From: a virus
Direction: 5' to 3' (one strand)
Length of the DNA stretch: 61,017 bases
Virus record (IMG/VR): IMGVR_UViG_3300002854_000002
Span: 1 to 61,017 of that record
In this document: positions 10,076 to 30,449 of the stretch, in pieces
Numbering within the stretch: the first letter of the stretch is position 1
Layout of the letters: the number at the start of each line of letters is the position of its first letter
Program-made: the position numbers and the translations under genes
Notes under the pieces: model-generated
What the model saw: only the letters and a program-made list of their open reading frames with translations
Told to the model about the DNA's origin: nothing
Database searches by the model: none

Positions 10076-10091
10076 CGAGGAGTGAATCGCT

Positions 10092-11069
10092 ATAGTTACG
10101 ATACGCGGGCCGAGCGGTCCAATCGAATTAGACGTAGACATACGCGCTGAACTCGAAGAATTTACTTGGATTCGGCCGGATTGGAGCGACGTTAAACTTA
10201 TCGCCGCAAGTCCGTTTCGTTACGATAAAACGCCGAGTTGGGCCGTTAGTTTAGAACACGGTGGCTGGCGTGATTGGGGCGCAACGGACCCGGAATATGA
10301 ATCGGGCAGTTTCGTAAAGTTGCTTTCCAGCCTCCGGGATGAGACATACGGAGAAACAGTGGAGTATCTTACGGTGAAATACGGTGACACAACGCCCAGC
10401 GATCCGGAAGACTTTACGCTAACCTTTCCGAAACTGAAAGTACCCGAGCCGCGTAGAATCCGCCTTGACAGCGAGATTCTCGATCAATACCGCTATCGTT
10501 CGCCGTATCTTGCCGGGCGCGGAATTAGCGAAAATGTACAGCGCATAATGTCGATCGGATATGACCGTAAGAGCCGCGCTGTGACGTTTCCGTGGTTTAA
10601 TCCGGATGGGACATTAGGCAACGTTAAATACCGGAAAACCGACGCTAAGACGTTCTGGTACGCTTCGGGCGGCCGTCCTCTACGTGAAATGATCTACGGA
10701 ATCCATATCGCTTATCAGCGGAGAATAACGCGAGCTGCGATCGTGGAGGCCGAGGTTGATGCATTAACGCTTATGAGCGCGGGGATCTACGCCATCGCGA
10801 CGGGCGGCACTGCATTTACAGCGGCTAAGCGCGATTTAATATCACGGTCGCCGATCGAGGAATTGACGTTATTTCGCGATAATGATCCGGCGGGAAGAAT
10901 ATGGCGTAATCGAATCATAACGGAATTAGGCTCTCGGATGGATATGCGCCTGGCATACATGCCGAATGCGTATAAAGACGTTAACGAGTGGGGATCTTGC
11001 GGTGGGAATCTTCGGAAGGCGTACGATAGAGCGCGCAAATGTCGAAAACTGACGGTTAATATACGTTGA
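10092..11069 (+). CDS. Toprim-domain DNA primase, apparent non-canonical start
   Basis: Toprim core EAEVDALTL...FRDNDPAG. The frame is open from 10086 and encodes a degenerate CHC2-like motif SPFRYDKTPSWAV upstream of the first canonical start (TTG 10320). SD GAGGAG 10077-10082 lies 9 nt before ATA 10092. Confidence 0.7.
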   Translation: MVTIRGPSGPIELDVDIRAELEEFTWIRPDWSDVKLIAASPFRYDKTPSWAVSLEHGGWRDWGATDPEYESGSFVKLLSSLRDETYGETVEYLTVKYGDTTPSDPEDFTLTFPKLKVPEPRRIRLDSEILDQYRYRSPYLAGRGISENVQRIMSIGYDRKSRAVTFPWFNPDGTLGNVKYRKTDAKTFWYASGGRPLREMIYGIHIAYQRRITRAAIVEAEVDALTLMSAGIYAIATGGTAFTAAKRDLISRSPIEELTLFRDNDPAGRIWRNRIITELGSRMDMRLAYMPNAYKDVNEWGSCGGNLRKAYDRARKCRKLTVNIR

Positions 11070-11158
11070 TGTCAGGTTACGCCGGGTTGTACAATAAGGA
11101 AACGGAGGTAAACACGCCCAATTCTACATTACGTAGAACTCCGGACTGGGCCGAGCAC

Positions 11159-11371
11159 TTATCTCGACCACTCGAATAAGTCACGCGGGCCAACGCCTAA
11201 AGCATCGGCAAGTGCTACGGCAACCTCCAGCGACATACGGTTACGGCGCCCGGTTGTGTAGAACGAGATAACACGCTCGTCTACGCCCGAGAGTAATGCA
11301 AGGTCGCGCTGCGACATGCGTTTAGCTTCGAGTAAATCTGAAATAAGGCACCGGCCGATCCGTGATTGCAT
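11159..11371 (-). CDS. XRE-family HTH regulator (70 aa)
   Basis: MSQRDLALLSGVDERVISFYTTGRR is HTH_3-like. It is a monocistronic minus-strand gene facing the sigma-like gene. Confidence 0.8.
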   Translation of the reverse strand: MQSRIGRCLISDLLEAKRMSQRDLALLSGVDERVISFYTTGRRNRMSLEVAVALADALGVGPRDLFEWSR

Positions 11372-11479
11372 CGGTGGGCCTCCGCTATAAAATTAAATTA
11401 CCATTATTTTCGTGAAGAGTGTACGGAACTAAAATCTACGACGTCATTATAAGTATAAAACAAAACAAGAGGTGGTCAA

Positions 11480-12133
11480 GTGAAGAACGGCCCACAATTA
11501 AATAATCTCTACGCTGAGTTTCGCGCAGGAAATAGCGATTCATTCAACAATCTATACGAAGCGCTCGCGGAACACTCCGCCATTAACCGTTCGATTGTCC
11601 TACGGTCAGGTTGCGGAAATGCGAACGACGCACTTACGATATTCGATGACGTGCTTATGCGGCTCATTCGCAAGGATAACGTAGAGGACTTCAGCCGCGC
11701 GTTCTTAAAGAGTTTGCGTAATGCTCGGGTCGATTACTTCCGGAAATGGAAGCGAACGAATGGCCGGCTAAAGTGGATAGATGATATTACGGAAGACGAC
11801 GAAGGGGCGGCAACCTCGACGGACATCCTCCGAAGCGATTACGTACTTGAAGACGATGTTACTAAAAAGAATGAAGCCGAGAAGCTTTCGCTAGTCGACT
11901 TCATCCTCGATTCCGCCAAGAATCTAATTGGCCCTGAGATGACGGCAATCATCAAAGGACTACCTGATTACGACTCCGTTAATGAGGCGGCAACCTCATT
12001 AGGGATGCATCGTAATCAGATCGCTAGACCGTTAGCCCGGCTTACCCGTTTCTACAATCGAGAAGTTCACGGAGATTTACGCGATTACTTCCCGAAAGAT
12101 ACACGATTAAAACGCGAGTTTATTTCGGCCTAA
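11480..12133 (+). CDS. Sigma-70/ECF-like sigma factor
   Basis: Region-2-like segment (FNNLYEAL...DALTIFDDVLMRL...FLKSLRNARVDYFRK) and region-4-like HTH (NEAATSLGMHRNQIARPLARL). GTG start with SD GAGGTGG. Confidence 0.5.
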   Translation: MKNGPQLNNLYAEFRAGNSDSFNNLYEALAEHSAINRSIVLRSGCGNANDALTIFDDVLMRLIRKDNVEDFSRAFLKSLRNARVDYFRKWKRTNGRLKWIDDITEDDEGAATSTDILRSDYVLEDDVTKKNEAEKLSLVDFILDSAKNLIGPEMTAIIKGLPDYDSVNEAATSLGMHRNQIARPLARLTRFYNREVHGDLRDYFPKDTRLKREFISA

Positions 12134-12316
12134 TTTCAGTATACCACACGCAAACCTTGTCCAAACATTAACAAATCTTAACGCTTGTCCGGCGTTTTGG
12201 TAGGACGTCGGACTTCTGAAAAGCTTATGTATTATAATCCGTTGGTAATATAATACAATTCGCTTTCCATATTGTCAATACGTTTACACTACGAACATAA
12301 TCGGAGGTCTCACGCT

Positions 12317-12493
12317 ATGACACGTCAGCGCTGTATTAATATTCATAGTATACACGATATTTCGACGAATGTAAAACGCAATTTAACGCATATAAACGAA
12401 GTATCTCTCGAATATAACGGAGACTGTGATAAATACGACGATTCCGCAGATTTTTACGCGGAAAAACCTGTCAAGGCGGTGCGTCTCGGATGA
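12317..12493 (+). CDS. Hypothetical small protein (58 aa)
   Basis: ATG 12317 with GGAGG 9 nt upstream. ATGA coupling to the next gene. Confidence 0.4.
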   Translation: MTRQRCINIHSIHDISTNVKRNLTHINEVSLEYNGDCDKYDDSADFYAEKPVKAVRLG

Positions 12494-13062
12494 AAAACGT
12501 TATTGATCCGAAAGCCGGCACGCATTTTCCGATGCCAACGAAGATATTCGTAACACCGCACGCGCTGGACGAAGCCGTTAAGGACTTCGGCATCGAGCGG
12601 TCAAAAGCGCCAATGCACGTCATGGACTTACTGCGTAAATCTGCGTTAATTGACCCGTATATAGTAGGAGATGACGGAAATCCAGTGCGATTATTCGCTT
12701 ACAAACGGCAAGCTTTCATCGTTTCGTTAGACTCTGATACGGTGGTTACGACATATAGGCGCGATAGTGCGGCCGATTTGATACGTAACGCAGTGGAACC
12801 GGTGCTTCGGCGCGTACTAAGAGCTGCCCAACGCGAAGAGGCGGCGGAATTGAAACGGCTGGCCGTGATGAAGGCGGAGTTGTCGGTAAGACGGGCGGAA
12901 TGCGAACTAGCGCAGTTGTTGACTAAACGGCCGACTAAAGCACGCTCCTTACTCGAGGAAATAACGCAGATTGACGCAGAGATTACGCAAATTAATACGG
13001 AAATGGTTTCGGCTAGACAGCGCAAATCGACGTTAGCAAAGGGAATATGTGCGTACGTATAG
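12490..13062 (+). CDS. Hypothetical protein with C-terminal coiled coil (190 aa)
   Basis: Intact ORF with heptad-like Ala/Glu/Leu-rich C-terminus. Confidence 0.55.
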   Translation: MKNVIDPKAGTHFPMPTKIFVTPHALDEAVKDFGIERSKAPMHVMDLLRKSALIDPYIVGDDGNPVRLFAYKRQAFIVSLDSDTVVTTYRRDSAADLIRNAVEPVLRRVLRAAQREEAAELKRLAVMKAELSVRRAECELAQLLTKRPTKARSLLEEITQIDAEITQINTEMVSARQRKSTLAKGICAYV

Positions 13063-13096
13063 CGGACGGCTACGGACTTTAACGAGTCCGACGTCG

Positions 13097-13181: not shown

Positions 13182-13318
13182 GGACGTAGGAGCCGCGCAC
13201 CAACGGGTCGCTTGACGCCGAAAGCTGCGTCAGCACAATCGTAAGCCGCTCAATTACGGAGTCGACACGTAGGCGAGCGCAATCCTATCGTCCGAATCTA
13301 ATCGAGGAGTGTTGCGGA

Positions 13319-14131: not shown

Positions 14132-14152
14132 TATCACGAAGGAGGACGCAGC

Positions 14153-14263
14153 ATGAACGCAGTATCAACGTTAGAAAGACCGGCCGTAGCTGCGGGAGGA
14201 AGCGGATATAAACCGCCTACTCCCCGGCCGCCGGCGTTAAGCTTCGGAAAGGAGCGCGATTGA
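14153..14263 (+). CDS. Hypothetical small Pro-rich protein (36 aa)
   Basis: Strong SD GAAGGAGG upstream of ATG 14153. Confidence 0.35.
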   Translation: MNAVSTLERPAVAAGGSGYKPPTPRPPALSFGKERD

Positions 14264-14687
14264 GACGGCGCATTTAAGCGAGATTGTCGGAAAGTACTCG
14301 GAACTAGCGGCGCGGCTCGCTCTCATGGCGGCGGGCTGGACCGTTCACAAAGCGGAGACGGAAGAAGCGTACGACATCCTCGCGACCGATCCACTAACCG
14401 GCGCGCACGCTAAACTGCAGGTCAAAACGATTCGCCAACGGATGGATCGCGCCGGCGACCTCGTTATATACGCGAAGAAAGGGAACGGCACGGCCTACGA
14501 CCGGTCCGACGCTGACTATATCGTTGGCGTGTGGGCGGCGGATGGCGAAATGCCTCGCGTATATATGCTCGAAAACCGGCTGCTTACGGAGTATTGGGCG
14601 TCCGAAGCACGAGCGGCCGAGCGTTGGGTCGAATTACCGATCGCGCTAGATCGGAGCGTGTTCGATGACACTCGATCGGAGGAATGA
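14259..14687 (+). CDS. PD-(D/E)XK endonuclease-like protein (group I intron-associated type), apparent ATT start
   Basis: Pattern SE...AARLALMAAGW.V....E..YDILA.D......KLQVKT...D.D.IVGV. The N-terminal helix lies upstream of the first ATG (14325). ATT 14259 overlaps the upstream stop (ATTGA), 4 nt after GGAG. Confidence 0.55.
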   Translation: METAHLSEIVGKYSELAARLALMAAGWTVHKAETEEAYDILATDPLTGAHAKLQVKTIRQRMDRAGDLVIYAKKGNGTAYDRSDADYIVGVWAADGEMPRVYMLENRLLTEYWASEARAAERWVELPIALDRSVFDDTRSEE

Positions 14688-14891: not shown

Positions 14892-16985
14892 TTGGCAAAG
14901 TTAAACGTAGAAACTGTACCGGCTGTAAGCGTAATGATCGAGGGCGTTGAATACCGTAAGGTTGAACGGGCAGCTAAGGCGGGCGATATCGTTAAAATGG
15001 TTGCCACGTCAGCTGACGATGACGTAACGATCGGAGGCTTCTACTACGTTGACCGCGTCGACTCGTGCGGGGACGCGCATATCACCGGCGATGAAGGCGG
15101 TGATTTCGATACCGTCGGCGATACGCTGGAAGTCTACGAGAAAGTAGCGGAAGAGAATGCGGAGACAGCACCGCGCCGGCTTACCGTTGGGGATTACGCG
15201 AAAGTCGTTTCTGAACGTGCTAGCCGCTCGTCCTCGCATCGTCACGAAGTAGGATCGGTAGTTAAGATCGTGATTGATGATAAGTCAGCGCTACCATATA
15301 AATGCGAGAAAGCTGACGGAACTCGCGGCTGTTACATTTACGAAGACGAGATGGAGCCAGCGACGGAAGCCGAGTTCCTGGCGCAGAAGAAGCCGCAGGA
15401 CTCATCGTTTAAGTCCGGTGATGTCGTTCGTAGTAAAACGGGTTCTCCAACGTGGACGACAACGTTAAAGGAACGCGATCCACGAATGGACGGAACTGAG
15501 CACGGTAAAGCGTGGATGCATACGCACGACAGCGGATGGATCGGCGAGAATCAGTTCGAAAAGGTTACGGAAGAGGTTCCGGAAACAACGAAACCGACTG
15601 AGCCGGCTGCGATTAAAACGGAACCCTACGTCATCCACGACGGAAAAGTCTACGTTAAGGAAACGCGCACGGCGAGAGTCGGCGAGGTTATTACGCCACT
15701 AAAACGCGAGCGTTACGTAACCGTGGGGGGAACGTACGAAGTCACGACTAGATCGCCGCATCACGTTCACTTTACGGACGATGAAGGCGACCGCTGGCAT
15801 ATTGCTGACGGAGACTACGCCGTACTCGTACCGGTCCCGACGGAGCAACGCAAGGCTGAATCCGGCGACCGCATCGTTGTAATTTCGGTTCATCACGAAG
15901 GAATCGTCGTAGGCGAGACGTTGACAGCTAGCTCCGTAGACAGTGAAGGCATAGTCATCACGGTTAAGGAACGCAATATTCCGGGATTTATTTTTTACAA
16001 CGGAAGCCGCGTAGGGAAGGAATACGTTGTGTTGGGGGACACTTCGAAGCCGGCGCGCTTAACGGTAGGTGATTACGCGAAAGTCGTTGAGGATGCGGCG
16101 CATTACGAAATCGGCGAGATTATCCGCATCACGGAAGACGACGGTACTCGCGTTCCTTACATGGGGGAGCGTGCTAGCGACGGTACAATTGGCGGCTATA
16201 TTACGCAGACCAAAGTCGTACCGGCAACACGTGAGGAGTTCGAAGCCCGCCGCGCTGAAGCAGCCGAGCCTGCGCGTCTTAAAGTCGGTGATTACGCCCG
16301 AGTTGCGAAAGCTTACGGAGGCCATTTCGCAAAAGTTGGCGATATCTTAAAAGTGTGGGACATCGTAACGTACGGAGATAATCATATCCGCTGCGAAAAA
16401 CTGGACGGTTCACGTAAAGGTAACGATTACTTCTACGATGACGAACTTGTCCGTGCTACTGACGAAGAGATTGCCGCCGCTAAGGAAGCCGCTGATCCAC
16501 GCAATCAATTCGCAGTCGGCGATAAAGTGCGATTGATTAGCGGAGGCAGAGCGCATCCTCTGCGCGGGTATCAAAACGGCCAGATGTACACCGTTGAAGA
16601 CCCGAAGTTCTCCGGTCACCGGAACGAACGAATTAAGATCGTTGGAGGCGACCAGCGTACTGCATTCGCTAAACCGGAGCAGCTCGTTAAAGTTAGCGCT
16701 GAAGAGATCGCTGCAGAGTCGGCGAAGGCTAAATGGGCCGCGATCGGGCGTAAAGTCAACGAGTATAAAACGGGCGATATCGTACGAATCACTGCGGATA
16801 GATCGGCTGCAGGCGTTGTAACTGGCGAGATTGCCGAAGTGAAGTCGTCAGAGTCTGGAATCGTAAACGAAGGCGTACGTTTGACGAAGATAAATCCTAG
16901 CGGGAGTAATTCGTGGGTAGCCGTTAGTGATGTTGAACTCGTTACGCCGGTTGAGCAACGTTTCGATACACCGCGAAGCTGCTAG
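14892..16985 (+). CDS. Tandem-repeat protein, about 9 small beta-barrel (SH3/Tudor/KOW-like) modules (697 aa)
   Basis: Recurrent 55-70-aa units begin with (R)L.VGDYAKV / VGD.V.V. An exact 18-nt DNA repeat GATTACGCGAAAGTCGTT occurs at 15192-15209 and 16071-16088. TTG start with AAGGGAG upstream. Confidence 0.7.
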   Translation: MAKLNVETVPAVSVMIEGVEYRKVERAAKAGDIVKMVATSADDDVTIGGFYYVDRVDSCGDAHITGDEGGDFDTVGDTLEVYEKVAEENAETAPRRLTVGDYAKVVSERASRSSSHRHEVGSVVKIVIDDKSALPYKCEKADGTRGCYIYEDEMEPATEAEFLAQKKPQDSSFKSGDVVRSKTGSPTWTTTLKERDPRMDGTEHGKAWMHTHDSGWIGENQFEKVTEEVPETTKPTEPAAIKTEPYVIHDGKVYVKETRTARVGEVITPLKRERYVTVGGTYEVTTRSPHHVHFTDDEGDRWHIADGDYAVLVPVPTEQRKAESGDRIVVISVHHEGIVVGETLTASSVDSEGIVITVKERNIPGFIFYNGSRVGKEYVVLGDTSKPARLTVGDYAKVVEDAAHYEIGEIIRITEDDGTRVPYMGERASDGTIGGYITQTKVVPATREEFEARRAEAAEPARLKVGDYARVAKAYGGHFAKVGDILKVWDIVTYGDNHIRCEKLDGSRKGNDYFYDDELVRATDEEIAAAKEAADPRNQFAVGDKVRLISGGRAHPLRGYQNGQMYTVEDPKFSGHRNERIKIVGGDQRTAFAKPEQLVKVSAEEIAAESAKAKWAAIGRKVNEYKTGDIVRITADRSAAGVVTGEIAEVKSSESGIVNEGVRLTKINPSGSNSWVAVSDVELVTPVEQRFDTPRSC

Positions 16986-16997
16986 GGGGCGGTTCTG

Positions 16998-18776
16998 ATC
17001 GACGTAAAACTGACGCTAAACACACGTGTTAAAGACGCTGTACGACGTAAGACGGCGGCTATTCCGGAAACAGCGGCCGAAGCATTTGTGAGAATCGGCG
17101 CGATGGCACTCTCGGATAAGGAGCGCGCACAGTACGTAGAAGCTCGCCAAGCCTACTCAGACGGACGAATTGGTAACGTTCGATCTGATAACGCTAAATG
17201 GACGAAGGGCGACGTACTGGCGGCAGGCGCGCGCTTATTACGAGAGAAGGCGGAGTCAATCCGGAGGGAGCGTATGGCGGAAGTCGTACGCTCCAAGCCC
17301 GCCAATTATCACGTATTAACGAACGATTCCGAGTTGCCCGCGTTTATCGAAAGACTCCGCGAAGAGTGTCGTAGACAAACCGCCGAGTGGACGGACCGAT
17401 TCCGCATACTCGGCGTTGATACAATGACGGCCGGCGACTTCGAAGGAACCGGGATCGATACGTACATCGATTTATCGATCGGCTACAGCGTGTGGTTGCC
17501 GTTGCTCGACGAAGGCTATTATCTCGCGTACGGTCACGTTGATATGCGCGGCGAAGATGGCTTCGAGTTTCTAACGGAAGAGTCAGCGTTCAAGGAGTCT
17601 GATCCTCAGCTTACGCGTTCGAAAGTATTAGCGGCAATTATCCCGTACTTATCGCGGCCGAATCACGGCAAGACGTTCCATATGGGATCGGCTCGCTACG
17701 ATTTACACGTCGCGGATAAAGACGGCTACGAGATTCGCGGCTGCGTTTGGGATACGTTGGACGCCATGAATTTAATGAACGAACACGAACCAGCATACGG
17801 ATTGAAGCCGTTGATTGCGAAGTACGGTCCGGCTTTCGGGATTAACGGTCCGATCGTTACCTTCGAAGATCTATTCGGCCCGCGCTCGCCGGCTCCGTTT
17901 AATACGGAACTCGTCGGCATCTACGCAATCAACGACGTTAAATACGGATGGTCGCTGTTCGAATGGCAGTTCGCGCAAATGGGAAAAGCGCCGAGCGCTA
18001 ACGGAAATGGCCGGCTCCTCGAATGCTACGCGTTGATCGATTCGAAGCTGCCGGAGACCGACGTATTCATGGCACGTTGCGGATTCGAAATCGATACAGA
18101 CGGATTGGCGCGACTGGCAGCGGAGTTTACGCCGAAGTTGGAGGCGGCCCGCGCGGAGGTCATCGAATCGTACGGAATTGATGCGGCCTTTGTACGGAAA
18201 ATGGATCGCGCCCTTCACAGCGCTAAAGTTACGGAATGGATCGGTAAGCAAGGCTCTCGTATCGCCCGTAGGCGTGAGCAATTAACGAAGCATCGTGCCA
18301 TTATTGCGGACTGTGAAGAGCGCGGTAAGACGGATACGAAGAAATACACGGAAGCCGCTGCGAAACTGGCGGAGTTGGAGGCGGACGTACTAGCGCCAGC
18401 CGACGAGGAACATGCGCCGCTTTTTACGGAAGATTTTTCGATTACGAACGGCAACCATCTCGCGTATCTCATTTACGATCATCTCGGAATCCGTGACCGG
18501 ACGCCGCAATTCAAACGCGGCAAGACGCGCTCTACGGCGGCCGACGTCCTGGACGCGTACTACGAAGAGGAAGAGGCACTAAAGCCGCTAGCGACGGTTG
18601 CGGCATACGAGAAACTGCTTAATACGTACGTGACGAAGGTACCGGCGGCGCTCGAAGGTGATGGGCGGCTGCATACGGAGTTTAAGGCGGGCGGCACGTC
18701 AACGGGGCGCTATAGCAGCGCGGGCTATCGTGGGCGGCCGATCGATATATTAGCGGAATTTGAAACGGAGGGGTAA
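16998..18776 (+). CDS. Family A DNA polymerase, N-terminal piece (3'-5' exonuclease plus first part of the polymerase domain)
   Basis: Ends at ...LHTEFKAGGTSTGRYSS followed by an 18-aa tail. Canonical starts are GTG 17088 or ATG 17103, neither with an SD. ATC 16998 lies 8 nt after AGGGGG. Confidence 0.8.
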   Translation: MDVKLTLNTRVKDAVRRKTAAIPETAAEAFVRIGAMALSDKERAQYVEARQAYSDGRIGNVRSDNAKWTKGDVLAAGARLLREKAESIRRERMAEVVRSKPANYHVLTNDSELPAFIERLREECRRQTAEWTDRFRILGVDTMTAGDFEGTGIDTYIDLSIGYSVWLPLLDEGYYLAYGHVDMRGEDGFEFLTEESAFKESDPQLTRSKVLAAIIPYLSRPNHGKTFHMGSARYDLHVADKDGYEIRGCVWDTLDAMNLMNEHEPAYGLKPLIAKYGPAFGINGPIVTFEDLFGPRSPAPFNTELVGIYAINDVKYGWSLFEWQFAQMGKAPSANGNGRLLECYALIDSKLPETDVFMARCGFEIDTDGLARLAAEFTPKLEAARAEVIESYGIDAAFVRKMDRALHSAKVTEWIGKQGSRIARRREQLTKHRAIIADCEERGKTDTKKYTEAAAKLAELEADVLAPADEEHAPLFTEDFSITNGNHLAYLIYDHLGIRDRTPQFKRGKTRSTAADVLDAYYEEEEALKPLATVAAYEKLLNTYVTKVPAALEGDGRLHTEFKAGGTSTGRYSSAGYRGRPIDILAEFETEG

Positions 18777-18778: not shown

Positions 18779-18937
18779 GTGGCAAAAGTTGTAGAAACGA
18801 ATGTTCCGAAGGATATCGAGTTGACGATCAAGCTAAACGTAGAGGAAATCGGTGTACTAACGCGGGCTATGGGGCGGCACGTTGAGGGCTACGAGTTGTT
18901 CAGATTCTTTGACCGTCTTTACGAACAGTATCGCTAA
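18779..18937 (+). CDS. 52-aa ORF inside the polymerase split
   Basis: GTG 18779 lies 3 nt after the upstream stop, with SD GGAGGGG. Its TAA overlaps the ATG of the downstream polymerase piece (TAATG). Confidence 0.45.
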   Translation: MAKVVETNVPKDIELTIKLNVEEIGVLTRAMGRHVEGYELFRFFDRLYEQYR

Positions 18938-20019
18938 TGCTGACGATAACTGACACCAATTACCACGCTATCGTCCGCAAGCTCATCGCCGACGAGCGCA
19001 AGGTTCCGAAGGGTACGAATCTTCAGAACATGCCGAGCAAAGGTGGCGGCGTCCTCGTCCGTAATCAATTCGTTCCGCGCGCCGGCTTTACGTTCGTCGG
19101 CGCTGACCTCGGCCAAATCGAACCGCGAATCATGGCGCACATCATGTGGACAGTATACGGAGACAACTCCATGCGTCAGATTTTCGTCGACGGCACGGAC
19201 TTGTATACGACTATGGCGATGATGACGTTTAGTTTGGCGGAAGAGTTTTGCGTAGATAAAGCGTACGATCCGACCGGCACGTTTAAGCCGCGTTCTCTCA
19301 TGAAGACCGGAGTACTCGCGGTCAGTTACGATCAGTCACCGCGTTCCTTCGCTAAGAAGATGAACGTAACGGACGAGGTAGCTGCGATGTTCTTCGAAAA
19401 CTTCGACCGTACATTCCCGTCGTTTAAGGCGATGGTAGCCGACATTCGTGACGCGATGAGACTAAGCGGTTATGTTGAAACGTTATACGGACGCAAACGG
19501 CGTTTCCCGGATTACAAGAGCGTGGCTGCAGCGGCCGCCAAGAACGAACAGCGCCTAATCCGGCTATACACGGAGCGCAAGCAGATCAACGCGAAAACAG
19601 CGCCAACGCCGCGCGATCAACAGCGATTAATAGCGTTACAGGACGAAATCGACGTTCTCGCGGAAAAACGCGGCCTTATCGGCTATTGGGAACGCGCGGC
19701 ATTTAACGCGGTCATTCAAGGGACCGGCGCGGATATCCTGAAGATGAACGGGAATCGAAACGCGCGGATATGCAAGGAACGCGGATGGGAATTTAATGCG
19801 TCGATCCACGATGAAATCAAGAACAGCGTGCCGAATGACGACCTTACGCCGGCAACGATCGAGCTTATCGACGAAATCATGACGAAGACGGCCGAGCTGA
19901 GCGTTCCGTTGGTTACGGATATCGTAATCGAGCCGCGTTGGATGATGGAGTATGGGCCGGACGAGTGGGATTACGTTAACTGCCGGCCGAAAGCGGAGTT
20001 CGCGAATAAATATGTATAG
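18937..20019 (+). CDS. Family A DNA polymerase, C-terminal piece (motifs A, B, C)
   Basis: GTNLQNMP, ADLGQIEPRIMAH (motif A), RSLMKTGVLAVSYD (motif B), SIHDEI (motif C). Confidence 0.9.
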   Translation: MLTITDTNYHAIVRKLIADERKVPKGTNLQNMPSKGGGVLVRNQFVPRAGFTFVGADLGQIEPRIMAHIMWTVYGDNSMRQIFVDGTDLYTTMAMMTFSLAEEFCVDKAYDPTGTFKPRSLMKTGVLAVSYDQSPRSFAKKMNVTDEVAAMFFENFDRTFPSFKAMVADIRDAMRLSGYVETLYGRKRRFPDYKSVAAAAAKNEQRLIRLYTERKQINAKTAPTPRDQQRLIALQDEIDVLAEKRGLIGYWERAAFNAVIQGTGADILKMNGNRNARICKERGWEFNASIHDEIKNSVPNDDLTPATIELIDEIMTKTAELSVPLVTDIVIEPRWMMEYGPDEWDYVNCRPKAEFANKYV

Positions 20020-20039: not shown

Positions 20040-20309
20040 ATGAAAATTACGGAGATTCACAATATCGGCGGAGATGACGATTACGAATACTGCGGAAAGG
20101 GTTCGATCACGGTTACAGTCGAGGACGACGCAGGCAATCGTAAAAGCGCCGACATCAGCGCGGGCGAGCCGGAGGATGCGGTATTCTTCCGCGATTTGAA
20201 CGGTGCTTACAATATCGCTGACATCGTTAAACTAGCGTACGAAGCCGGTAAGCGAGGCGAGGAAATGACGTACGAGTTTCGGGACGATAACGAAGAGGAG
20301 GCGGTTTAA
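20040..20309 (+). CDS. Acidic hypothetical protein (89 aa)
   Basis: Intact ORF with SD GAGGAGG. Confidence 0.55.
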   Translation: MKITEIHNIGGDDDYEYCGKGSITVTVEDDAGNRKSADISAGEPEDAVFFRDLNGAYNIADIVKLAYEAGKRGEEMTYEFRDDNEEEAV

Positions 20310-21368
20310 ATTAGCGTATTCACACGCATTGGAAACGCAGATCAAACGCAAACGGACCAAATCGCGGCTGACTTTACGGAATATCTCAACGCATGGCACT
20401 CGCAGCCGGAAACGTACGACGATGCTTTAGACGCGCAGATTCATCGGTGGTATGCGGACATCCTTACGGACAAATCGCGTAAAGTGTGGCCGCCGCGTGA
20501 CATACCGTACTTCTCGCCATCATCCGCGAATAGTTGTCCACGCGAACTTTACGAGAAGATCCGTAAAGCCAAGCGCGATAAGTCGCTCACTTCGCCGCAC
20601 CAAGGCCGCTGGCGCTCGATCGGAACCGCCATTGGCGACGTAATACAGCGAGATCTATTGTTCGCGGAGAAGCATCTTGACTCCGAAGCGATCGGTAATC
20701 AAGTATTTATGTTCGAGCGTAACGAACGCGGTGAGCCGATGTTTGAGAACTTCGCAAAGAAGAACGCCATCTTTACGCATCGCGGTAAAACGTTCTCTAT
20801 CTCCGGAACATGTGACGGCATCATGCGCTATGTATCGGAGGACGGTGAGGTTATACGCGTCGGTGTCGAAGTTAAGTCGAAGCAAACTACGTCCGCTAAG
20901 ACGTCAGAGTATTCAACGCGTAACGGCCCAGGCGCTGACCACGTCAAACAATGCGTATGTTATTCGCTTATGTACGGTACGGTCGATGAGCCAATTGACT
21001 ATTACATTATCCTTCACGTTAATGCGTCAAAAAAGGCATGGCAAATGAGCGCAGAGGATTACGCCAAGACGCCAGATATTAAGGCGTTCTGCTTCGAAAT
21101 AACGGACGAGATGCGGCACGGCGTTCTCGATTACTTTGCGGACGTCCTCGACGCGATAGAAAAGAACGATCCGCCTGCGCTAGATATCGGTAAGTTTACT
21201 TTTAACAACTACAAACGTGCGTGTGCGGCCGGTTTATCCGATGAGGAATACGCGGCCTTACAACGCCAAGTTGACGCAATACAACGCAGCGGATTGAAGG
21301 ATTTCGAGAAGCGTAATTATGCGGAAGCATTCGAACAATTAACGGAGTTACGGAAGGGGATCGCGTAA
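20310..21368 (+). CDS. PD-(D/E)XK (RecB/Cas4/YqaJ-like) exonuclease, apparent ATT start
   Basis: CDGI...VGVEVKS (D...E.K) and QCVCY (QxxxY). 58 sense codons are open between the upstream TAA and the first canonical start (GTG 20484). ATT 20310 lies 8 nt after GAGGAGG. Confidence 0.65.
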   Translation: MSVFTRIGNADQTQTDQIAADFTEYLNAWHSQPETYDDALDAQIHRWYADILTDKSRKVWPPRDIPYFSPSSANSCPRELYEKIRKAKRDKSLTSPHQGRWRSIGTAIGDVIQRDLLFAEKHLDSEAIGNQVFMFERNERGEPMFENFAKKNAIFTHRGKTFSISGTCDGIMRYVSEDGEVIRVGVEVKSKQTTSAKTSEYSTRNGPGADHVKQCVCYSLMYGTVDEPIDYYIILHVNASKKAWQMSAEDYAKTPDIKAFCFEITDEMRHGVLDYFADVLDAIEKNDPPALDIGKFTFNNYKRACAAGLSDEEYAALQRQVDAIQRSGLKDFEKRNYAEAFEQLTELRKGIA

Positions 21369-21755
21369 ATGAATCCAGTATATTTACACGGTTGGGAAAC
21401 GGCTGAGGACGTGATTGAGAGCTTCGAGGGAACGAGATGGAGCGAGGAGTCTTCGCCTCCCATTGCGGATAAAGACAACATCGAGATACTGCTTGCGTCC
21501 TACACGTATGAAGATTACTCCGGATACGCGTTCGTACTTTATCGCGAAAAATCAAGCGGAATCTTATACGAGGTCAATGGAAGTCACTGTAGTTGTTACG
21601 GACTTGAAGGACAGTGGTCACCGGAAGAGACAAACATTAAAGTATTACGACATCGTCTAACGGAAGGATCTCTTGGCTCATATTACGGTTCAAACGAGTA
21701 CACAAATGAACTGATAAGCGTTCTCGATGCGTTAGAGGCGGAGGTGGCGGTATAA
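21369..21755 (+). CDS. Hypothetical protein (128 aa)
   Basis: ATG directly follows the upstream stop. Confidence 0.55.
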   Translation: MNPVYLHGWETAEDVIESFEGTRWSEESSPPIADKDNIEILLASYTYEDYSGYAFVLYREKSSGILYEVNGSHCSCYGLEGQWSPEETNIKVLRHRLTEGSLGSYYGSNEYTNELISVLDALEAEVAV

Positions 21756-21998
21756 ATGGACCAAAAGCTACGCGATTACCTGACGATTACGGCGTTCGGC
21801 ACATTCGCAGCGGAAACCGATACGGATTTATCCGATATCATAACGCCGGAAGTCGTCGAAGCACTCTGCGTAAAATTCCCCGTTGATATTCCGCAGACGG
21901 CCGAGACTCGCGCGCTATCAACGGAGATTGTCCGCCAGATTGTCCGTGACGCGCTAGAACGGATAACGGAGGTGGCCGCCGATTCCTCCGAAAATTAA
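21756..21998 (+). CDS. Hypothetical protein (80 aa)
   Basis: ATG directly follows the upstream stop. Confidence 0.5.
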   Translation: MDQKLRDYLTITAFGTFAAETDTDLSDIITPEVVEALCVKFPVDIPQTAETRALSTEIVRQIVRDALERITEVAADSSEN

Positions 21999-22506
21999 AG
22001 AACCGACGCTAATCTACGCGGGACTCGATCTATCGCTAACATCGCCAGGATTCGCGGTCGTCTCCGTTAAGGGCCGCGTTCCTACGTTAGTCGCGACGTC
22101 AGTCGTCAAAACTGAAGCAGCCGAGGCGCAACCGCTACGCTACGAGGTAATCGAAGCGCACGCCTTATTATTCTTCCGCCAGTACACGCCGTCATCTGCT
22201 ATCATACGAGAAATATGGCCGCCATCACGTAACTTCGAGCAGAACGATAAAGTTCACGGAAGTTGGAGCGCGGTCGATCGCGCCCTATCCCGCCTTGGAC
22301 TCGTTGTAGCGGAGAGCCTTGCGCCAAGTAGCGTTAAGAAGCTAGTAACTGGAAACGGCCGCGCCGAGAAGCCGGAAGTAGCGGAGGCAGTACGGAGGAT
22401 TTTACGCCTCGGTCCGGATCACGTATTTAAGGCGGGGTATGACGATGCGGACGCATGTGCCGTAGTCCTGGCGTATCTTATCCGCGAAGAGTTGATTTCG
22501 ACGTGA
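21982..22506 (+). CDS. ruvC: RuvC-like Holliday junction resolvase (174 aa), absent from the ORF track, ATT start
   Basis: Hand translation gives 175 open codons: ..LIYAGLDLSLTSPGFAVV...AIIREIW...VKKLVTGNGRAEKPEV...GYDDADACAVVLAYL. The only in-frame ATG/GTG/TTG is TTG 22492, four codons before the stop. SD GGAGGTG 21968-21974 lies 7 nt before ATT 21982. Confidence 0.8.
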   Translation: MPPKIKEPTLIYAGLDLSLTSPGFAVVSVKGRVPTLVATSVVKTEAAEAQPLRYEVIEAHALLFFRQYTPSSAIIREIWPPSRNFEQNDKVHGSWSAVDRALSRLGLVVAESLAPSSVKKLVTGNGRAEKPEVAEAVRRILRLGPDHVFKAGYDDADACAVVLAYLIREELIST

Positions 22507-26527: not shown

Positions 26528-26534
26528 CGTGAAT

Positions 26535-27116
26535 ATGGCAAGGTTAAGCGGAGTTTACGAAACCGGCAACGTAATCGAGTACAACGGTGTGCGTTACGAG
26601 AGTACGGAAGATGACCCGCAAGTCGGCGATATCCTACGTAGCGGAACGCACTACTCATTCATGCCGAAGGGAGCTTTTTACGCAGTCGTAGCAGATAGCG
26701 AAAGTGATAACATCGGCATACTCGATGAAGACGAAACGTTTCTACTGGCCGATGGTGACGATATAGTATTCCGCCGCAACGTGTTAACAACTGCGCAGAT
26801 CATCGAACAAAAACGTGCAGCAGTCGCATCCCTTAACGCTGAAATCGCGGAATTAGAGACGGAAATGGCGGAGGAGTCAGCGCTGAAAGTCGGCGACTAC
26901 GCGCGGTTCGTATCTGGTGGTGACTTCAGCGAAGGAACAATCGTCGTAGTGGATAATACAGACGGACAGCGGCGGTATCCGTATGAGGTACACGCGGCGT
27001 TATGCCCCGAGTTGTCGGAGTACGTTAGCGCAAATCAACTTGAACGCTTAACGCCCGCCGAAGCACGCGCCGCTCTCATCGCGCAAATTGACGCGCTGTT
27101 TCCGGTAAGTCCCTAA
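26535..27116 (+). CDS. Repeat-module protein, paralogous to 14892-16985 modules (194 aa)
   Basis: Two beta-barrel-like modules (the second begins LKVGDYARFV) separated by a coiled coil. Confidence 0.6.
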   Translation: MARLSGVYETGNVIEYNGVRYESTEDDPQVGDILRSGTHYSFMPKGAFYAVVADSESDNIGILDEDETFLLADGDDIVFRRNVLTTAQIIEQKRAAVASLNAEIAELETEMAEESALKVGDYARFVSGGDFSEGTIVVVDNTDGQRRYPYEVHAALCPELSEYVSANQLERLTPAEARAALIAQIDALFPVSP

Positions 27117-27570
27117 CGTTTTAACCGCTGTCCTAGCGTATTTCTCGCTCCTTGCCGCGCTTGTAACGGCCGAGCCGGAGCCGCCCGCATCGAAAGAACC
27201 GACGTGGCATACGTTCGAGGCGACTGAAAAGCAGGGGACGTGGCGGTCTTTCGCGGCCACTGCCTACACGGCTGATTGTCGCGGCTGTACCGGCATTACA
27301 AAAACGGGAGTTAACGTAAAACAGACGCAGTATGACGCATATGGACGACGCATAATCGCGGTTGATCCGGCCGTCATCGCGCTTCATTCGGAAGTCGTCG
27401 TAATGTTGGCGGATGGCTTCACGTTTACGGCGGTCGCGGAGGACATTGGTGGCGCAATTAAGGGATCGCGGATTGACGTATTGACAGCGGATAGGAAGAC
27501 GGCGGAGAGGTTCGGCCGCCAGGACGTACAAATATGCGTAATGGGAGACGATGCGTATGATCGAAGTTAA
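27109..27570 (+). CDS. 3D-domain (MltA-like, YuiC/YocH-type) cell-wall protein with signal-peptide-like N-terminus, no identifiable start codon
   Basis: 154 open codons: ..LTAVLAYFSLLAALVTA..FAATAYTADCRGCTGITKTG...IIAVDPAVIALHSEV...EDIGGAIKGSRIDV...FGRQDVQICV. The first in-frame canonical start is ATG 27403, inside the domain. No ATT/ATC/ATA/CTG and no SD near the 5' end. Confidence 0.6.
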   Translation, partial: VPNVLTAVLAYFSLLAALVTAEPEPPASKEPTWHTFEATEKQGTWRSFAATAYTADCRGCTGITKTGVNVKQTQYDAYGRRIIAVDPAVIALHSEVVVMLADGFTFTAVAEDIGGAIKGSRIDVLTADRKTAERFGRQDVQICVMGDDAYDRS

Positions 27571-29032
27571 ACGTAAAGCAAACGTTGGAGAACGGATTAG
27601 AATCGTAGAGGAAATCAGCGAAGAGGACGCAGTCGGCTACTACAGGACCGGTGATGTTATGACAGTTACAAGCACGGATCGTTGGGGCGACGGTCAAGCC
27701 GTAAGCGTATCTGAGACGAGATGGGCTGTTCTTCACAGCGAGTACGTTGTAATCACGGAGGAGGCGGAGGTTATCGAAGACATTACGGTATTACCGGACG
27801 AATCATTGGGCGGAGTTCAACGCGAATACAACGAGGTTAAACGCAAAGCTAACGTGGGTGAGTGGGTTAAAATAGTAGCGGCTACCGGAGTGGACGAGGA
27901 GACGTACGTAAATGGCGATGTTCTGGACGTGGTTGACACGTGGTCAAACGGTGCAGTCGATACGTCGAACCTTCAGCACGTATTTTTGCGGGAGTATGTC
28001 GTTCTCGAACCATCCGATATCGTCGTTATCAACGGTGAACGCCTGCGCTTAGTCAATCGAAAGGCGGCCGTAGGTGAGCGTATACTATCGCTCGTAGGCG
28101 AAGGTAAATACGGAATTACCAAAGGCAACGTATACAGCGTAACAAGAACGGGAACCAACTCCGGCCACGAAGGCGTAACGGTCACTGACGACAACGGGGA
28201 AAGCCACGGAATTACAACTGAGTTCTATCGCGTTCTCGAACCTGTTTCCGCTCCGTCACCGTCCGTCACGCAACAAATCGACGGCCTGACGGAAGCAGTC
28301 GCGAAATTAACGCTTAAAAACGCGGATCTTGCGCTTCAACTCAAAGTTGCGCGAGAGGACATCGTTTTAATCGAGGAGGGCGTATCTGCGGATATTAAAC
28401 GCCTGGAGGCGGAAGTCGCGGCGTTGAAACGTGTGAAAGAATCCGCTAGGCCGTCCGTAAGTACGGCTGTAACGCGAGACGATATTATCGAACGTGCAAA
28501 ACGGGATGTAGCGGAACTTGTCCGTACTCCTCGCGACATTAACTGGCAGCATCCGCATTTCTGGCCGAAGATTGACGGAGAAAGAACGAATTGGACCCCG
28601 ATGCAGCGCGTAGACTTCGTCATCAACCCTCGAAAGCGGACGGTAGTCGCGATAATCCGGTTCCTTCCTGCATATAGAAACGGTGAAGTGTTCGCGAAAG
28701 GAATCGCCCGCTGCGCGCCGGATGACGTATTCAACTCGCATATCGGCCGCGCTATCGCCCTACGCCGTGCGCTCAGACTGGATGTGCCGCAGGAATACTT
28801 AAAGACTCCGCAGCCTACGGAGGCGCACGTCGGGGATATCGTAACTTTTAACGACCACGACGCAGGAAAAGTGGTATACCGTATCAATACGCTGAACCCG
28901 GCATGTGCGAACTGTACGGTCATACACGATGAGTGGTTCGGAGGTACGGATCACACAGGAGGGCGCGCAGCCGGCGGGGATTTTTCATGGGCGCGTATTA
29001 TCGACGACTCACGCGAGGAGGTGGCGGCCTAA
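27551..29032 (+). CDS. Repeat-module protein (3 N-terminal beta-barrel-like repeats, coiled coil, conserved C-terminal domain), 493 aa
   Basis: EVKRKANVGE(R/W)(I/V)(R/K)IV occurs twice plus a third divergent unit. C-terminus contains KGIARCAPDDVFNSHIGRAIALRRAL. Confidence 0.65.
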   Translation: MRMIEVKRKANVGERIRIVEEISEEDAVGYYRTGDVMTVTSTDRWGDGQAVSVSETRWAVLHSEYVVITEEAEVIEDITVLPDESLGGVQREYNEVKRKANVGEWVKIVAATGVDEETYVNGDVLDVVDTWSNGAVDTSNLQHVFLREYVVLEPSDIVVINGERLRLVNRKAAVGERILSLVGEGKYGITKGNVYSVTRTGTNSGHEGVTVTDDNGESHGITTEFYRVLEPVSAPSPSVTQQIDGLTEAVAKLTLKNADLALQLKVAREDIVLIEEGVSADIKRLEAEVAALKRVKESARPSVSTAVTRDDIIERAKRDVAELVRTPRDINWQHPHFWPKIDGERTNWTPMQRVDFVINPRKRTVVAIIRFLPAYRNGEVFAKGIARCAPDDVFNSHIGRAIALRRALRLDVPQEYLKTPQPTEAHVGDIVTFNDHDAGKVVYRINTLNPACANCTVIHDEWFGGTDHTGGRAAGGDFSWARIIDDSREEVAA

Positions 29033-29235
29033 TGCGCGACATTTACGTAATCCTCATCGGCGGTCGTCCGCATATGAAGGGAAACGCAATTCGTACGTAC
29101 AAGACACGCGAACGCGCGGAGAAAGAGGCGAAGGTTCTCGTCGGTTACAGGAAGCGCGGCTATTCTTCGTGGGTAGGTTGCCGAATTGAGACAGCGCTGT
29201 TTATCGCAAGTAATACCGTGGAGGTGGCGGATTAA
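29032..29235 (+). CDS. Hypothetical protein (67 aa)
   Basis: TAATG coupling and SD GAGGAGGTGG. Confidence 0.5.
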   Translation: MRDIYVILIGGRPHMKGNAIRTYKTRERAEKEAKVLVGYRKRGYSSWVGCRIETALFIASNTVEVAD

Positions 29236-29519
29236 TGGAGAAATCAACGCAAGAACAACGCATAGAATCCGTAGTTTCAGAAGTCGGATCGACGCTAATA
29301 CGGAAAAACCGCGACTACGGAGATAGCTTCGCTAAGCAATACGCTAAGTACGGTGTTATGTGCGGCCTTATCCGTATGGACGACAAGATGGCGCGCTTAA
29401 CGAATCTCGTCACGGGAGCGCAGCCGCATGTCGACGAGTCCATCGAGGATACGTTATTGGATCTCGCAGGCTACGCGATTCTATGCGCGGTCGAGCTACG
29501 GAAAACGAAATGCACATAA
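29235..29519 (+). CDS. DUF1599-like protein
   Basis: KNRDYGDSF...G..GLIRMDDKMARL...ESIEDTLLDLAGYA pattern, recalled from that family. Confidence 0.4.
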   Translation: MEKSTQEQRIESVVSEVGSTLIRKNRDYGDSFAKQYAKYGVMCGLIRMDDKMARLTNLVTGAQPHVDESIEDTLLDLAGYAILCAVELRKTKCT

Positions 29520-29692
29520 CCGAAACGAAACTCCGCCGCATGTTAGACGAAGCTTATCGCCGGGGCTACCGAGCGGGCTACGTAATCAGCCGTGTGGACG
29601 CGATTAACGGGATTTACGATGCTGACGCACCGTCCGCTTCTTCTTCCGCTACGAATACGAGCCAGCCGTCTTGTTCCGCCTCAAAGACGTAG
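29510..29692 (+). CDS. Hypothetical protein (60 aa), low-complexity C-terminus
   Basis: ATG 29510 overlaps the previous gene end. The 3' 79 nt overlap a convergent ORF. Confidence 0.35.
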   Translation: MHITETKLRRMLDEAYRRGYRAGYVISRVDAINGIYDADAPSASSSATNTSQPSCSASKT

Positions 29693-29988
29693 CGCCGCGC
29701 TTCTTCCGCTAGGCGAGCCTTACGGTAAAAGTGCGAAGCGCTGGCGTAGCCGCGTTTATCGATATTGGCCGCCGTAGGGTCGCCGCCTGAGGCCGCGAGT
29801 CTTATCGCGATTGCTTTCGCTCCGTGATCGTAGCCTAAAGCAACGCGCGGGGAAACGCCATCGACTTCGCTGCGGAGGTTATACAACGTAATAATATCGG
29901 AGCTGAAGCGCAGGCGGCGTTGTTTGTCCGTTGCGATAAAGAGGTTGACGAGCGGAATAGTTTCGATGTTAAAGCGCTTATCACTCAT
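29614..29988 (-). CDS. Hypothetical minus-strand protein (124 aa), possible DNA-binding regulator
   Basis: Intact ORF, divergent from a phased-repeat control region. Weak resemblance to duplicated AbrB-like half-domains, by inspection only. Confidence 0.45.
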   Translation of the reverse strand: MSDKRFNIETIPLVNLFIATDKQRRLRFSSDIITLYNLRSEVDGVSPRVALGYDHGAKAIAIRLAASGGDPTAANIDKRGYASASHFYRKARLAEEARRYVFEAEQDGWLVFVAEEEADGASAS

Positions 29989-30008
29989 CGCGATTCACTC
30001 CGTTTTTA

Positions 30009-30038
30009 ACGCAATTATAACGCAAATGGCACGCAATT
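30009..30038 (+). promoter_or_regulatory. Three ACGCAA(T/A)T boxes phased at 11 bp
   Basis: ACGCAATT 30009-30016, ACGCAAAT 30020-30027, ACGCAATT 30031-30038. They lie in the divergent intergenic region. TACAAT sits at 30038-30043. Confidence 0.5.
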
Positions 30039-30062
30039 ACAATCATACGGGAGGCGTTAAGT

Positions 30063-30449
30063 ATCGGAGCATGTAACGTAGACCTAACGGAAAAAGGCCG
30101 CCAATACAGCGTACAGTACGCGCTCAATGACGCTGCCGGGGTAAAGGCGCTATTGCGCGATCGCCACAAGATCGCTGCCCGCCGTTTTAACGGAGATACG
30201 GACGCTTCCGACATTCTCCTCGACCTCCATAGCGCGATTGAAAGCAGCGGTATCACAGATCGCCAAGCGGAAGCGATAGCGCTTGTTTACGGCCTCGACG
30301 TTACGCAGGGGACGGCAGCGCGTGTTATGGGCGTCGGCCAAGATAGCGTAAGCGACTTCGTAAATGGGGCAGCGGCGCGAATAGCAGCGGTCTATCAGCG
30401 GTGGGAATACGGAATTATTAGCGTTCAGTTAGAGGGGGAAATCGTTTGA
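30063..30449 (+). CDS. Sigma region-4-like / ArpU-like transcription regulator, apparent ATC start
   Basis: ITDRQAEAIALVYGLDVTQGTAARVMGVGQDSV is an HTH. The frame is open from 30021. GGAGG 30050-30054 lies 8 nt before ATC 30063. The first canonical start is TTG 30153, which has no SD. Confidence 0.5.
   Translation: MGACNVDLTEKGRQYSVQYALNDAAGVKALLRDRHKIAARRFNGDTDASDILLDLHSAIESSGITDRQAEAIALVYGLDVTQGTAARVMGVGQDSVSDFVNGAAARIAAVYQRWEYGIISVQLEGEIV

Follow-up and report, generated by a model that had tools for sequence, protein, structure and literature searches.

The stretch of viral DNA analyzed here in full (IMG/VR record IMGVR_UViG_3300002854_000002, 61,017 bp; hereafter the window) carries a group of replication and recombination genes in which no ATG, GTG or TTG codon (NTG) is found where the protein should begin. 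In six genes, encoding a primase, a putative PD-(D/E)XK endonuclease, the N-terminal piece of a split family-A DNA polymerase (PolA-N), a Cas4-like exonuclease, a RuvC-like resolvase and a sigma-factor-like regulator, and also in the large terminase gene (TerL), the conserved coding sequence ran 5' past every in-frame NTG to a near-cognate codon, that is, a codon with a single mismatch to ATG. The same aligned codon in relatives was either an NTG or another near-cognate, typically 7–9 nt behind a GGAGG core. We consider it quite likely that these genes are governed by near-cognate initiation that is directed by a Shine-Dalgarno (SD) sequence and is often coupled to an upstream stop codon, and, with less assurance, that this initiation has been selected for a low dose of nucleases and polymerase.

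A sequence-only reading of the window had earlier pointed to the six replication and recombination genes, claiming that each has an SD sequence followed at 4–9 nt by ATT, ATC or ATA (ATH), and all strings, spacers and coordinates proved correct when they were re-read (Table 1). It had also claimed that the first NTG lies far downstream, and we measured this codon at 28–175 codons from the in-frame upstream stop (primase, 78; PD-(D/E)XK, 28; PolA-N, 34; exonuclease, 58; RuvC, 175; sigma-like, 44). Because NTG codons are scarce inside the genes of the window (3.8% of codons), NTG-free runs of this kind are not decisive alone. NTG depletion within the weak-start genes was not general, and only RuvC was low (P = 0.01, uncorrected). 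The six starts were near the upstream stop, as had been noted, with distances from the end of the preceding open reading frame (ORF) of 16 nt for the primase, -5 nt for PD-(D/E)XK (by way of a 36-codon small ORF), 12 nt for PolA-N, 0 nt for the exonuclease, -17 nt for RuvC and -14 nt for the sigma-like gene; the gap for TerL was 18 nt. The SD duplex energies at the seven weak starts ranged from -10.3 to -16.1 kcal/mol (mean, -13.6), the mean at the canonical starts of the window was -12.2 kcal/mol (n = 60), and 3.4% of random window positions reached -10 kcal/mol or lower. Spacers at the weak starts were 7–9 nt, apart from 4 or 10 nt in the PD-(D/E)XK gene, and no SD sequence was present in front of the downstream first NTGs of these genes. 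Three of the genes are in the same frame as the preceding gene with one stop codon between, namely PolA-N (TAG 16983-16985), the exonuclease (TAA 20307-20309) and TerL (TAA 38073-38075).

Table 1. Coordinates of the genes with proposed non-NTG starts and of associated features in the window
Feature	Coordinates	Strand	SD sequence	Spacer (nt)	Proposed start	First NTG	Remarks
DNA primase	10077..11069	+	GAGGAG 10077-82	9	ATA 10092	TTG 10320	Toprim and phrog_47 matches
Small ORF, 36 codons	14153..14263	+	AAGGAGG		ATG 14153		Peptide MNAVSTLERP..GG.GYKPP..
Putative PD-(D/E)XK endonuclease	14250..14687	+	AGGAG 14250-54		ATT 14259 or ACG 14265	ATG 14325	phrog_5018
PolA-N	16984..18776	+	AGGGGG 16984-89	8	ATC 16998	GTG 17088	N-terminal piece of split family-A DNA polymerase
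Cas4-like exonuclease	20295..21368	+	GAGGAGG 20295-301	8	ATT 20310	GTG 20484	phrog_1706
RuvC-like Holliday-junction resolvase	21968..22506	+	GGAGGTG 21968-74	7	ATT 21982	TTG 22492
3D-domain gene, cell-wall hydrolase-like	27109..27570	+			Unassigned		N-terminal transmembrane helix
Sigma-factor-like regulator	30049..30449	+	GGGAGG 30049-54	8	ATC 30063	TTG 30153	phrog_3512
Large terminase TerL	38079..39788	+	AAGGAGG 38079-85	8	ACG 38094	TTG 38163	Frame opens at 38076

The comparison set consisted of 177 related phage and prophage loci from public collections, numbered L001–L197 with gaps. At the protein level the kin of the window were Paenibacillus larvae phages of the genus Halcyonevirus (Tripp, Unity and Halcyone), Bacillus phage phBC6A51, and prophages of Neobacillus and Paenibacillus, and its nearest relatives showed 65–81% protein identity. 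Alignment to homologues, a check that the sequence-only reading had proposed, gave tblastn matches in relatives that begin 0–2 codons from every proposed start, and the Pfam and PHROG profiles opened at or beside the proposed starts. In the segment between the proposed start and the first NTG, the nonsynonymous measure pN was 0.11–0.40 versus 0.49–0.90 for its synonymous counterpart pS. The stretches upstream of the first NTG are coding and under purifying selection. As controls, the genes g14892, PolA-C, g12490 and g30446 aligned with the canonical starts of relatives. The frame at 13190 had been a candidate for a further weak start, with its first NTG after 43 codons, and was rejected since its homologues begin at its canonical TTG 13319. 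A tblastn table of the whole window was noisy, with alternate-frame matches caused by DNA similarity.

In the RuvC gene, the only NTG stands 5 codons before the stop (175 of 179 codons in), and therefore the whole Pfam RuvC domain precedes any canonical start. Pfam RuvC (PF02075) matched residues 14-163 with 46.9 bits (cut-off, 22.2), corresponding to positions 3-146 of the 148 in the profile, and the matched domain included the first catalytic Asp, with the G-L-D-L-S motif at the N-terminus. The ATT codon at 21982 lies within a 17-nt overlap with the upstream gene (21756-21998). In relatives, the aligned start codon, which sits before a common A-K-P-K...R-Y-x-G-L-D N-terminus, was CTG in 15, ATA in 6, ATC in 3, ACG in 2 (L007 and L106), TTG in 5 and ATG in 21, and was almost always non-NTG in the closer relatives. 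An in-frame stop occurred just upstream of the RuvC start independently in every relative, and at least 13 start-codon changes were counted on a neighbor-joining tree.

In the exonuclease gene, ATT 20310 directly follows the TAA that ends the upstream gene (20040-20309). The arrangement in which the start comes after the junction GGAGGCGGTTTAA was widespread in relatives and identical in many loci. Among 54 distinct start regions, the start codon was ATT in 14, ATC in 4, ATA in 3, CTG in 4, TTG in 26, ATG in 2 and GTG in 1, with a spacer of 8 nt in most of them. At least 14 start-codon changes were counted on the neighbor-joining tree, and ATG occurred in one lineage only; its count was 0 of 34 in the conservative census described below, or 2 of 57. 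Every near-cognate is one mutation away from ATG, and a change from ATH to CTG or TTG needs either an ATG intermediate or a double hit. That ATG is nearly absent despite one-step access would speak for counter-selection of strong starts and not for drift. On the 3' side of the exonuclease gene, a stop codon is directly followed by ATG twice, at 21369 and again at 21756.

For the PD-(D/E)XK gene, the SD sequence and the ATT codon were as the sequence-only reading had described them, but the codon that aligns with the starts of homologues at the family-typical spacer is ACG 14265, at a distance of 10 nt to GGAG, or of 9 nt when the GGAGN core is the reference; the spacer of ATT 14259 is 3–4 nt. 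The homologues open with X-A-H, in which the first codon is ATG in L160, L009 and L129, TTG in L166, ATC in L159 and L164, and ACG in seven loci and the window. The TGA of the small ORF overlaps ATT 14259 as ATTGA, a classic coupling motif. Six or more related loci, among them L012, L008/L158, L106, L159 and L167, conserved the peptide of the small ORF, and the upstream ORF ended 4 nt before the aligned PD-(D/E)XK start in five loci (the window, L157, L012, L163 and L106). The PD-(D/E)XK label itself, also taken from the sequence-only reading, received moderate support: Pfam PDDEXK_5 matched the gene at 14259/14265-14687 with E = 0.021, below the cut-off, a profile of the family matched PDB 2OST, a 'putative endonuclease', with E = 0.0027 over residues 5-102, and a PDB search with the single protein sequence gave no match. 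The family alignment contained E13..D37..Q52-V-K54, in which D37 and Q52 were invariant and K54 nearly so.

In PolA-N, residue 10 of the protein corresponded to position 10 of the phrog_12241 profile. The codon aligned with ATC 16998, directly before D-V-K-L-T-L-N, was TTG in L122 and L153, ATG in L022, ATA in L155 and L107, and ACG in L012/L104, which are one relative sampled twice. The segment upstream of the first NTG showed pN of 0.16–0.32 versus pS of 0.55–0.83. CTG 16995 was rejected as a start codon, as the ATG, TTG and ATA codons of homologues align with ATC 16998. The split polymerase consists of ORFs at 16998-18776 and 18937-20019 with a 52-codon ORF (18779-18937) between them, and the polymerase is one continuous ORF in L115, L116 and L133.

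The primase and the sigma-like regulator differed from these four genes in the conservation of the weak codon. The ATG of the L013 primase aligned exactly with ATA 10092 (M-I-T-I-R-G-P versus I-V-T-I-R-G-P), and the 75 codons upstream of the first NTG showed pN of 0.29 versus pS of 0.75; relatives mostly had ATG or TTG at the aligned start. ATC 10086 was ruled out as the primase start by its 3-nt spacer and by the L013 alignment. In the sigma-like regulator, residue 2 corresponded to position 2 of the PHROG profile, and homologues opened with M/V/L-G-x-x-[KN]-[VI]-D exactly at ATC 30063, starting with ATG in 19, GTG in 3 and TTG in 1, with ATC in L171 (and, by inspection, in L052) and ATA in L029. 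A putative ORF (29924-30076) is situated upstream of this gene. The sequence-only reading had proposed to compare related phages for conservation of the ATH codons, and such conservation was found in the exonuclease, RuvC, PD-(D/E)XK and PolA-N genes and not in the primase, with sporadic occurrence in the sigma-like gene and TerL. From this distribution, the primase ATA and the sigma-like ATC look like lineage-specific substitutions rather than parts of an old program.

All six genes of the earlier list held, and the list had missed two further genes. One is TerL, in which the first NTG, without an SD sequence, is 29 codons into the frame and 23 beyond ACG 38094, and no other SD-backed start candidate was found in the TerL frame. 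In 81 homologous loci the aligned codon, directly preceding A-[FYW]-[VIL]-[ND]-G-x-W-L, was ATG in 54, TTG in 8 (and in 3 more shifted by one codon), GTG in 7 and ATC in 9; the window had ACG. The other is the 3D-domain gene, in which there was no NTG for 98 codons and no SD sequence, and in which the first near-cognate codon, ACG 27166, comes only at the end of the transmembrane helix. The frame opens with GTC 27109 and has an in-frame TAA immediately upstream, and the preceding gene ends with CCC TAA, 8 nt into the 3D-domain frame. Relatives of this gene started with ATA (L014 and L178), ATC (L018 and L173) or ATG (L070), and in L017 (TAA GTT...) the layout was likewise start-less. For the 3D-domain gene, a +1 shift of frame at CCC_TAA was considered and rejected, as the motif was not conserved in L017.

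A crude count gave 80–98 ORFs in the window, of which 7, or 8 with the 3D-domain gene, had no NTG start (approximately 8–10%). The earlier suggestion that such usage is far above that of typical bacteria was borne out, since annotated bacterial non-NTG starts amount to approximately 0.05% of genes (10.1101/063800) and four such sites were found in the whole Staphylococcus aureus genome (PMC13009471). The habit is lineage-wide and specific to certain gene classes. Starts in relatives were assigned by a rule of GGAGG core plus spacer, and the census used a conservative version in which an NTG was preferred whenever it was SD-backed near the aligned N-terminus. By this census the non-NTG fraction was 0.74 in the exonuclease, 0.71 in PD-(D/E)XK, 0.55 in RuvC, 0.38 in PolA-N, 0.11 in TerL, 0.08 in PolA-C, 0.07 in the sigma-like gene and 0.06 in the portal gene, and it was 0 in TerS, the capsid, neck/tail and helicase genes, g20040 and g21369. 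By these fractions, it is chiefly the nuclease and polymerase genes that carry weak starts. The genes g20040 and g21369, operon neighbors of the weak-start genes, were ATG-started. The idea of a throttle on nucleases and polymerases, put forward in the sequence-only reading, thus gains comparative support from the concentration of weak starts in the exonuclease, PD-(D/E)XK, RuvC and PolA-N and their virtual absence from structural genes.

These data suggest the following mechanism. A strong SD sequence, typically 7–9 nt upstream, would place a 30S subunit, or a 70S ribosome that is terminating, on AUU, AUC, AUA, CUG or probably ACG. In most cases the ribosome would be fresh from the preceding ORF, because the stop of that ORF abuts the start, overlaps it or lies within 18 nt; the coupling suggested in the sequence-only reading fits this geometry, with gaps of 16 to -17 nt to the upstream stop. 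The initiator fMet-tRNA would pair with one mismatch, and discrimination by initiation factor 3 (IF3) against near-cognates would make initiation inefficient, as the literature on other genes leads one to expect. Nucleases, polymerase, primase and regulator would thereby be kept at a low and constant level relative to their ATG-initiated operon neighbors. The window contained zero tRNA genes and zero Rfam families, so a special initiator tRNA encoded by the phage or a known RNA element is not the explanation. That the weak-start genes initiate at near-cognate codons is, in our estimation, quite probable; we lean, with less assurance, toward the reading that selection has acted to keep nucleases and polymerase scarce.

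Start-codon attenuation, as in infC, pcnB and ccpN, and translational coupling are both known, and all of their features that can be examined in silico were seen in the window. Like Escherichia coli infC (AUU) and pcnB (AUU) and S. aureus infC, ccpN, citZ (AUA) and cvfC1 (AUU), the phage genes combine a single-mismatch start with a strong, well-spaced SD sequence and a weak codon conserved in orthologues; the reduced, IF3-sensitive output known for infC, pcnB and ccpN would be expected here by analogy. Those genes are isolated (2–4 per genome, or approximately 0.05–0.15% of genes), whereas the phage has 7–8 genes in 61 kb, and up to 74% of one family. In addition, the phage codon turns over (ATT, ATC, ATA, CTG, TTG and ACG) at a fixed position and avoids ATG in the exonuclease, and the genes affected encode nucleases and replication enzymes, not IF3 or regulators of metabolism, with ACG seemingly in use. 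Reportedly, Sussman, Simons and Simons (1996) grouped CUG, AUU, AUC, AUA and ACG as one class discriminated by IF3, the same codon set as in the phage starts described here. In E. coli, AUA, AUC, AUU and CUG yield 1–2% of the AUG output, and ACG yields less but still gives a Met-initiated protein (10.1101/063800, Hecht et al. preprint). Where an extended SD sequence precedes them, AUU and AUA starts of S. aureus reach approximately 10%, and up to 30%, of the AUG output (PMC13009471).

Other known systems resemble the phage arrangement in part. In the BspRI restriction-modification system, the endonuclease gene has a TTG start and the methyltransferase gene an ATG start, which was proposed as a safety device on the nuclease (PMC2978348); there too, the nuclease gene has a weaker start than its neighbor. 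The BspRI start, however, is a canonical weak TTG with a poor SD sequence, and the phage codons are mostly non-canonical, have perfect SD sequences, and precede several unrelated nucleases in one operon. As in ATGA and TAATG coupling, the phage has TAA-ATT at the exonuclease, ATTGA at PD-(D/E)XK, overlaps of 17 and 14 nt at RuvC and the sigma-like gene, and SD sequences inside the end of the upstream gene. The restart codon in the phage is a near-cognate and not ATG, and coupling here would be expected from the geometry. The natural GTC start of Streptomyces sigR, which is repressed by IF3 (PMC5472188), is likewise a non-NTG start, one that serves regulation, and the GTC at the opening of the 3D-domain frame might have a precedent in it; GTC has two mismatches to AUG, and GTC 27109, which lacks an SD sequence, is a candidate only. 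A full-text literature search of incomplete coverage, by which earlier reports may have been missed, found no account of such starts in phages or in this phage group. What would be new in these phages is the density (approximately 8–10% of genes versus approximately 0.1%), the lineage-wide pattern by gene class, the rapid turnover of weak codons avoiding ATG, and the probable use of ACG.

Several observations weigh against near-cognate initiation selected for low dose. SD sequences at the weak starts showed no significant gain in strength over those at canonical starts (p = 0.12). The start of the PD-(D/E)XK gene is ambiguous between ATT 14259 and ACG 14265, either of which is non-canonical. 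The starts in the census are rule-based picks from related, non-independent genomes. The efficiencies of ACG and ATH in E. coli (0.1–3%) seem low for a terminase. The codons specific to the window, the primase ATA and the TerL ACG, have no relative closer than approximately 65–80% identity. Finally, the 3D-domain gene, with neither an SD sequence nor a near-cognate codon, does not fit the near-cognate model at all.

The only serious rival explanation concerns function and not mechanism. It holds that the near-cognate starts are real but neutral, in that the SD sequence and the delivered ribosomes make codon identity matter little and genes needed in catalytic amounts drift. The sporadic weak codons of the primase and the sigma-like gene agree with drift, as do the occasional ATC codons at TerL and the portal gene and the general frequency of TTG in the window (approximately 20% of ORFs); the 10–30% of AUG output reached in S. 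aureus with extended SD sequences suggests that the penalty may be modest. Drift would, however, be expected to bring in ATG frequently, yet the exonuclease had 0 of 34 or 2 of 57 despite at least 14 changes and the adjacent operon genes were 100% ATG, and the enrichment was confined to nuclease and polymerase genes. We regard neutrality as improbable, although not negligibly so.

Much less probable is that sequencing or assembly errors, or start mutations in a decaying prophage, produced the pattern and that the genes are pseudogenes. The primase ATA and the TerL ACG were unique to the window among the relatives sampled, and no near-identical genome was found: megablast of 10 kb of the window against GenBank phages gave no close DNA match, an exact-protein lookup of the window PolA-C returned no record, and a scan of metagenomes found no relative with more than 74% identity to the window. 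With only distant relatives for comparison, these two codons, and no others, may each be a recent mutation or a base error. For the pattern as a whole, the same phenomenon appeared in independently sequenced isolates, metagenomes, Tripp, Unity, and the Neobacillus and Paenibacillus prophages, the ORFs were intact over hundreds of codons under purifying selection, and seven independent start-codon errors, each yielding a near-cognate, are implausible.

A still smaller chance was given to joint translation with the preceding ORF, in which readthrough, stop reassignment or programmed frameshifting would yield a fusion protein and dispense with internal initiation. The in-frame pairs g14892/PolA-N, g20040/exonuclease and TerS/TerL, each with a single stop between, would allow it, and CCC_TAA before the 3D-domain gene could support a +1 shift. 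Against it, relatives carry ATG, TTG or GTG with their own SD sequence exactly at these positions, the upstream stops vary (TAA, TAG and TGA) and the frames differ among relatives, RuvC, the primase and the sigma-like gene are read in another frame than the genes before them, the CCC_TAA motif was not conserved in L017, and the long ORFs are dense under table 11, with no tRNA genes and no sign of recoding. The least probable explanation by our reckoning, that the true starts are the downstream canonical codons and that the SD sequences and ATH codons are coincidental before an untranslated stretch, can appeal to the rarity of NTG (3.8%), by which NTG-free runs of 28–60 codons are not improbable, and to the choice of such starts by the GenBank annotators of Tripp and Unity, but it would leave RuvC with 4 residues and is excluded for that gene, it made the Unity annotation of RuvC lose the first catalytic Asp, and it conflicts with N-termini of the primase, exonuclease, PolA-N and sigma-like proteins that are conserved and inside family profiles, with pN far below pS upstream of first NTGs that lack an SD sequence, and with canonical starts of homologues that fall at the ATH positions.

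Within the reading of SD-directed near-cognate initiation, the use of ACG is a more tentative element. ACG was found at aligned, SD-backed starts of four genes, namely PD-(D/E)XK (seven loci and the window), RuvC (two loci), PolA-N (one relative) and TerL (the window). ACG is absent from the start codons of NCBI table 11, and no natural gene, bacterial or phage, is known to have been accepted as ACG-started. ACG may be a genuine start in this lineage, but we would give this somewhat less than an even chance. Doubtful to us is the widest proposal, in which toxic DNA enzymes would be under an evolvable rheostat made up of all the single-mismatch codons (AUU, AUC, AUA, CUG and ACG) that the lineage uses, with ATG selected against, with ACG as the true start of the window TerL and of the PD-(D/E)XK, RuvC and PolA-N genes of several relatives, and with the 3D-domain gene initiating without an SD sequence or a near-cognate. 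Because near-cognates are IF3-sensitive, the nuclease dose could, on this proposal, rise when IF3 is limiting, as in late infection or stress. ACG is also the most frequent Thr codon in the window (4.3% of codons) and often stands directly after the start codon (TTG-ACG and ATT-ACG). TTG was an unusually frequent start in the window (approximately 20% of ORFs by a crude call).

The window looks like a complete or nearly complete genome of a tailed phage, with almost all genes on the + strand and a G+C content of approximately 46–55% across 2-kb windows, mostly approximately 50–55%. Its replication module comprises a DnaB-like helicase, the primase, the split family-A polymerase, the Cas4-like exonuclease, RuvC, a ribonucleotide reductase and a ligase, and the packaging and structural module extends from approximately 37.6 kb. 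Upstream of the small terminase, the region 36300-37620 contained few convincing ORFs and included an 82-codon open frame (37353-37601) without any NTG; this region may not code for protein and may instead serve in packaging or regulation.

The weak-start feature has gone unrecognized in Tripp and Unity because the annotations truncate RuvC and the exonuclease. The genes concerned are located at 1492-2031 and 486-1523 in Tripp (L001, NC_028930) and at 1465-2004 and 459-1496 in Unity (L002, NC_055031). The Tripp RuvC is annotated at 76 amino acids, the Unity RuvC annotation begins after the first catalytic Asp, and the 'CRISPR/Cas system associated' exonucleases of both phages are annotated 16 to approximately 50 codons late. 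Judging from the alignments, the true starts in Tripp and Unity are likely CTG for RuvC and ATC for the exonuclease. Gene callers restricted to NTG truncate or lose nuclease genes, and therefore the functional inventories of this phage group are systematically wrong at 5' ends.

With more than 50 genomes, the related phages form a natural basis for comparison, in which start-codon strength, and not the promoter or the SD sequence, appears to be the selected variable for the dosing of nucleases in coupled operons. An SD sequence joined to a near-cognate codon would be a ready low-expression cassette for toxic genes in Firmicutes, and the recurrent ACG at aligned, SD-backed starts would, if confirmed, extend the accepted set of bacterial start codons.

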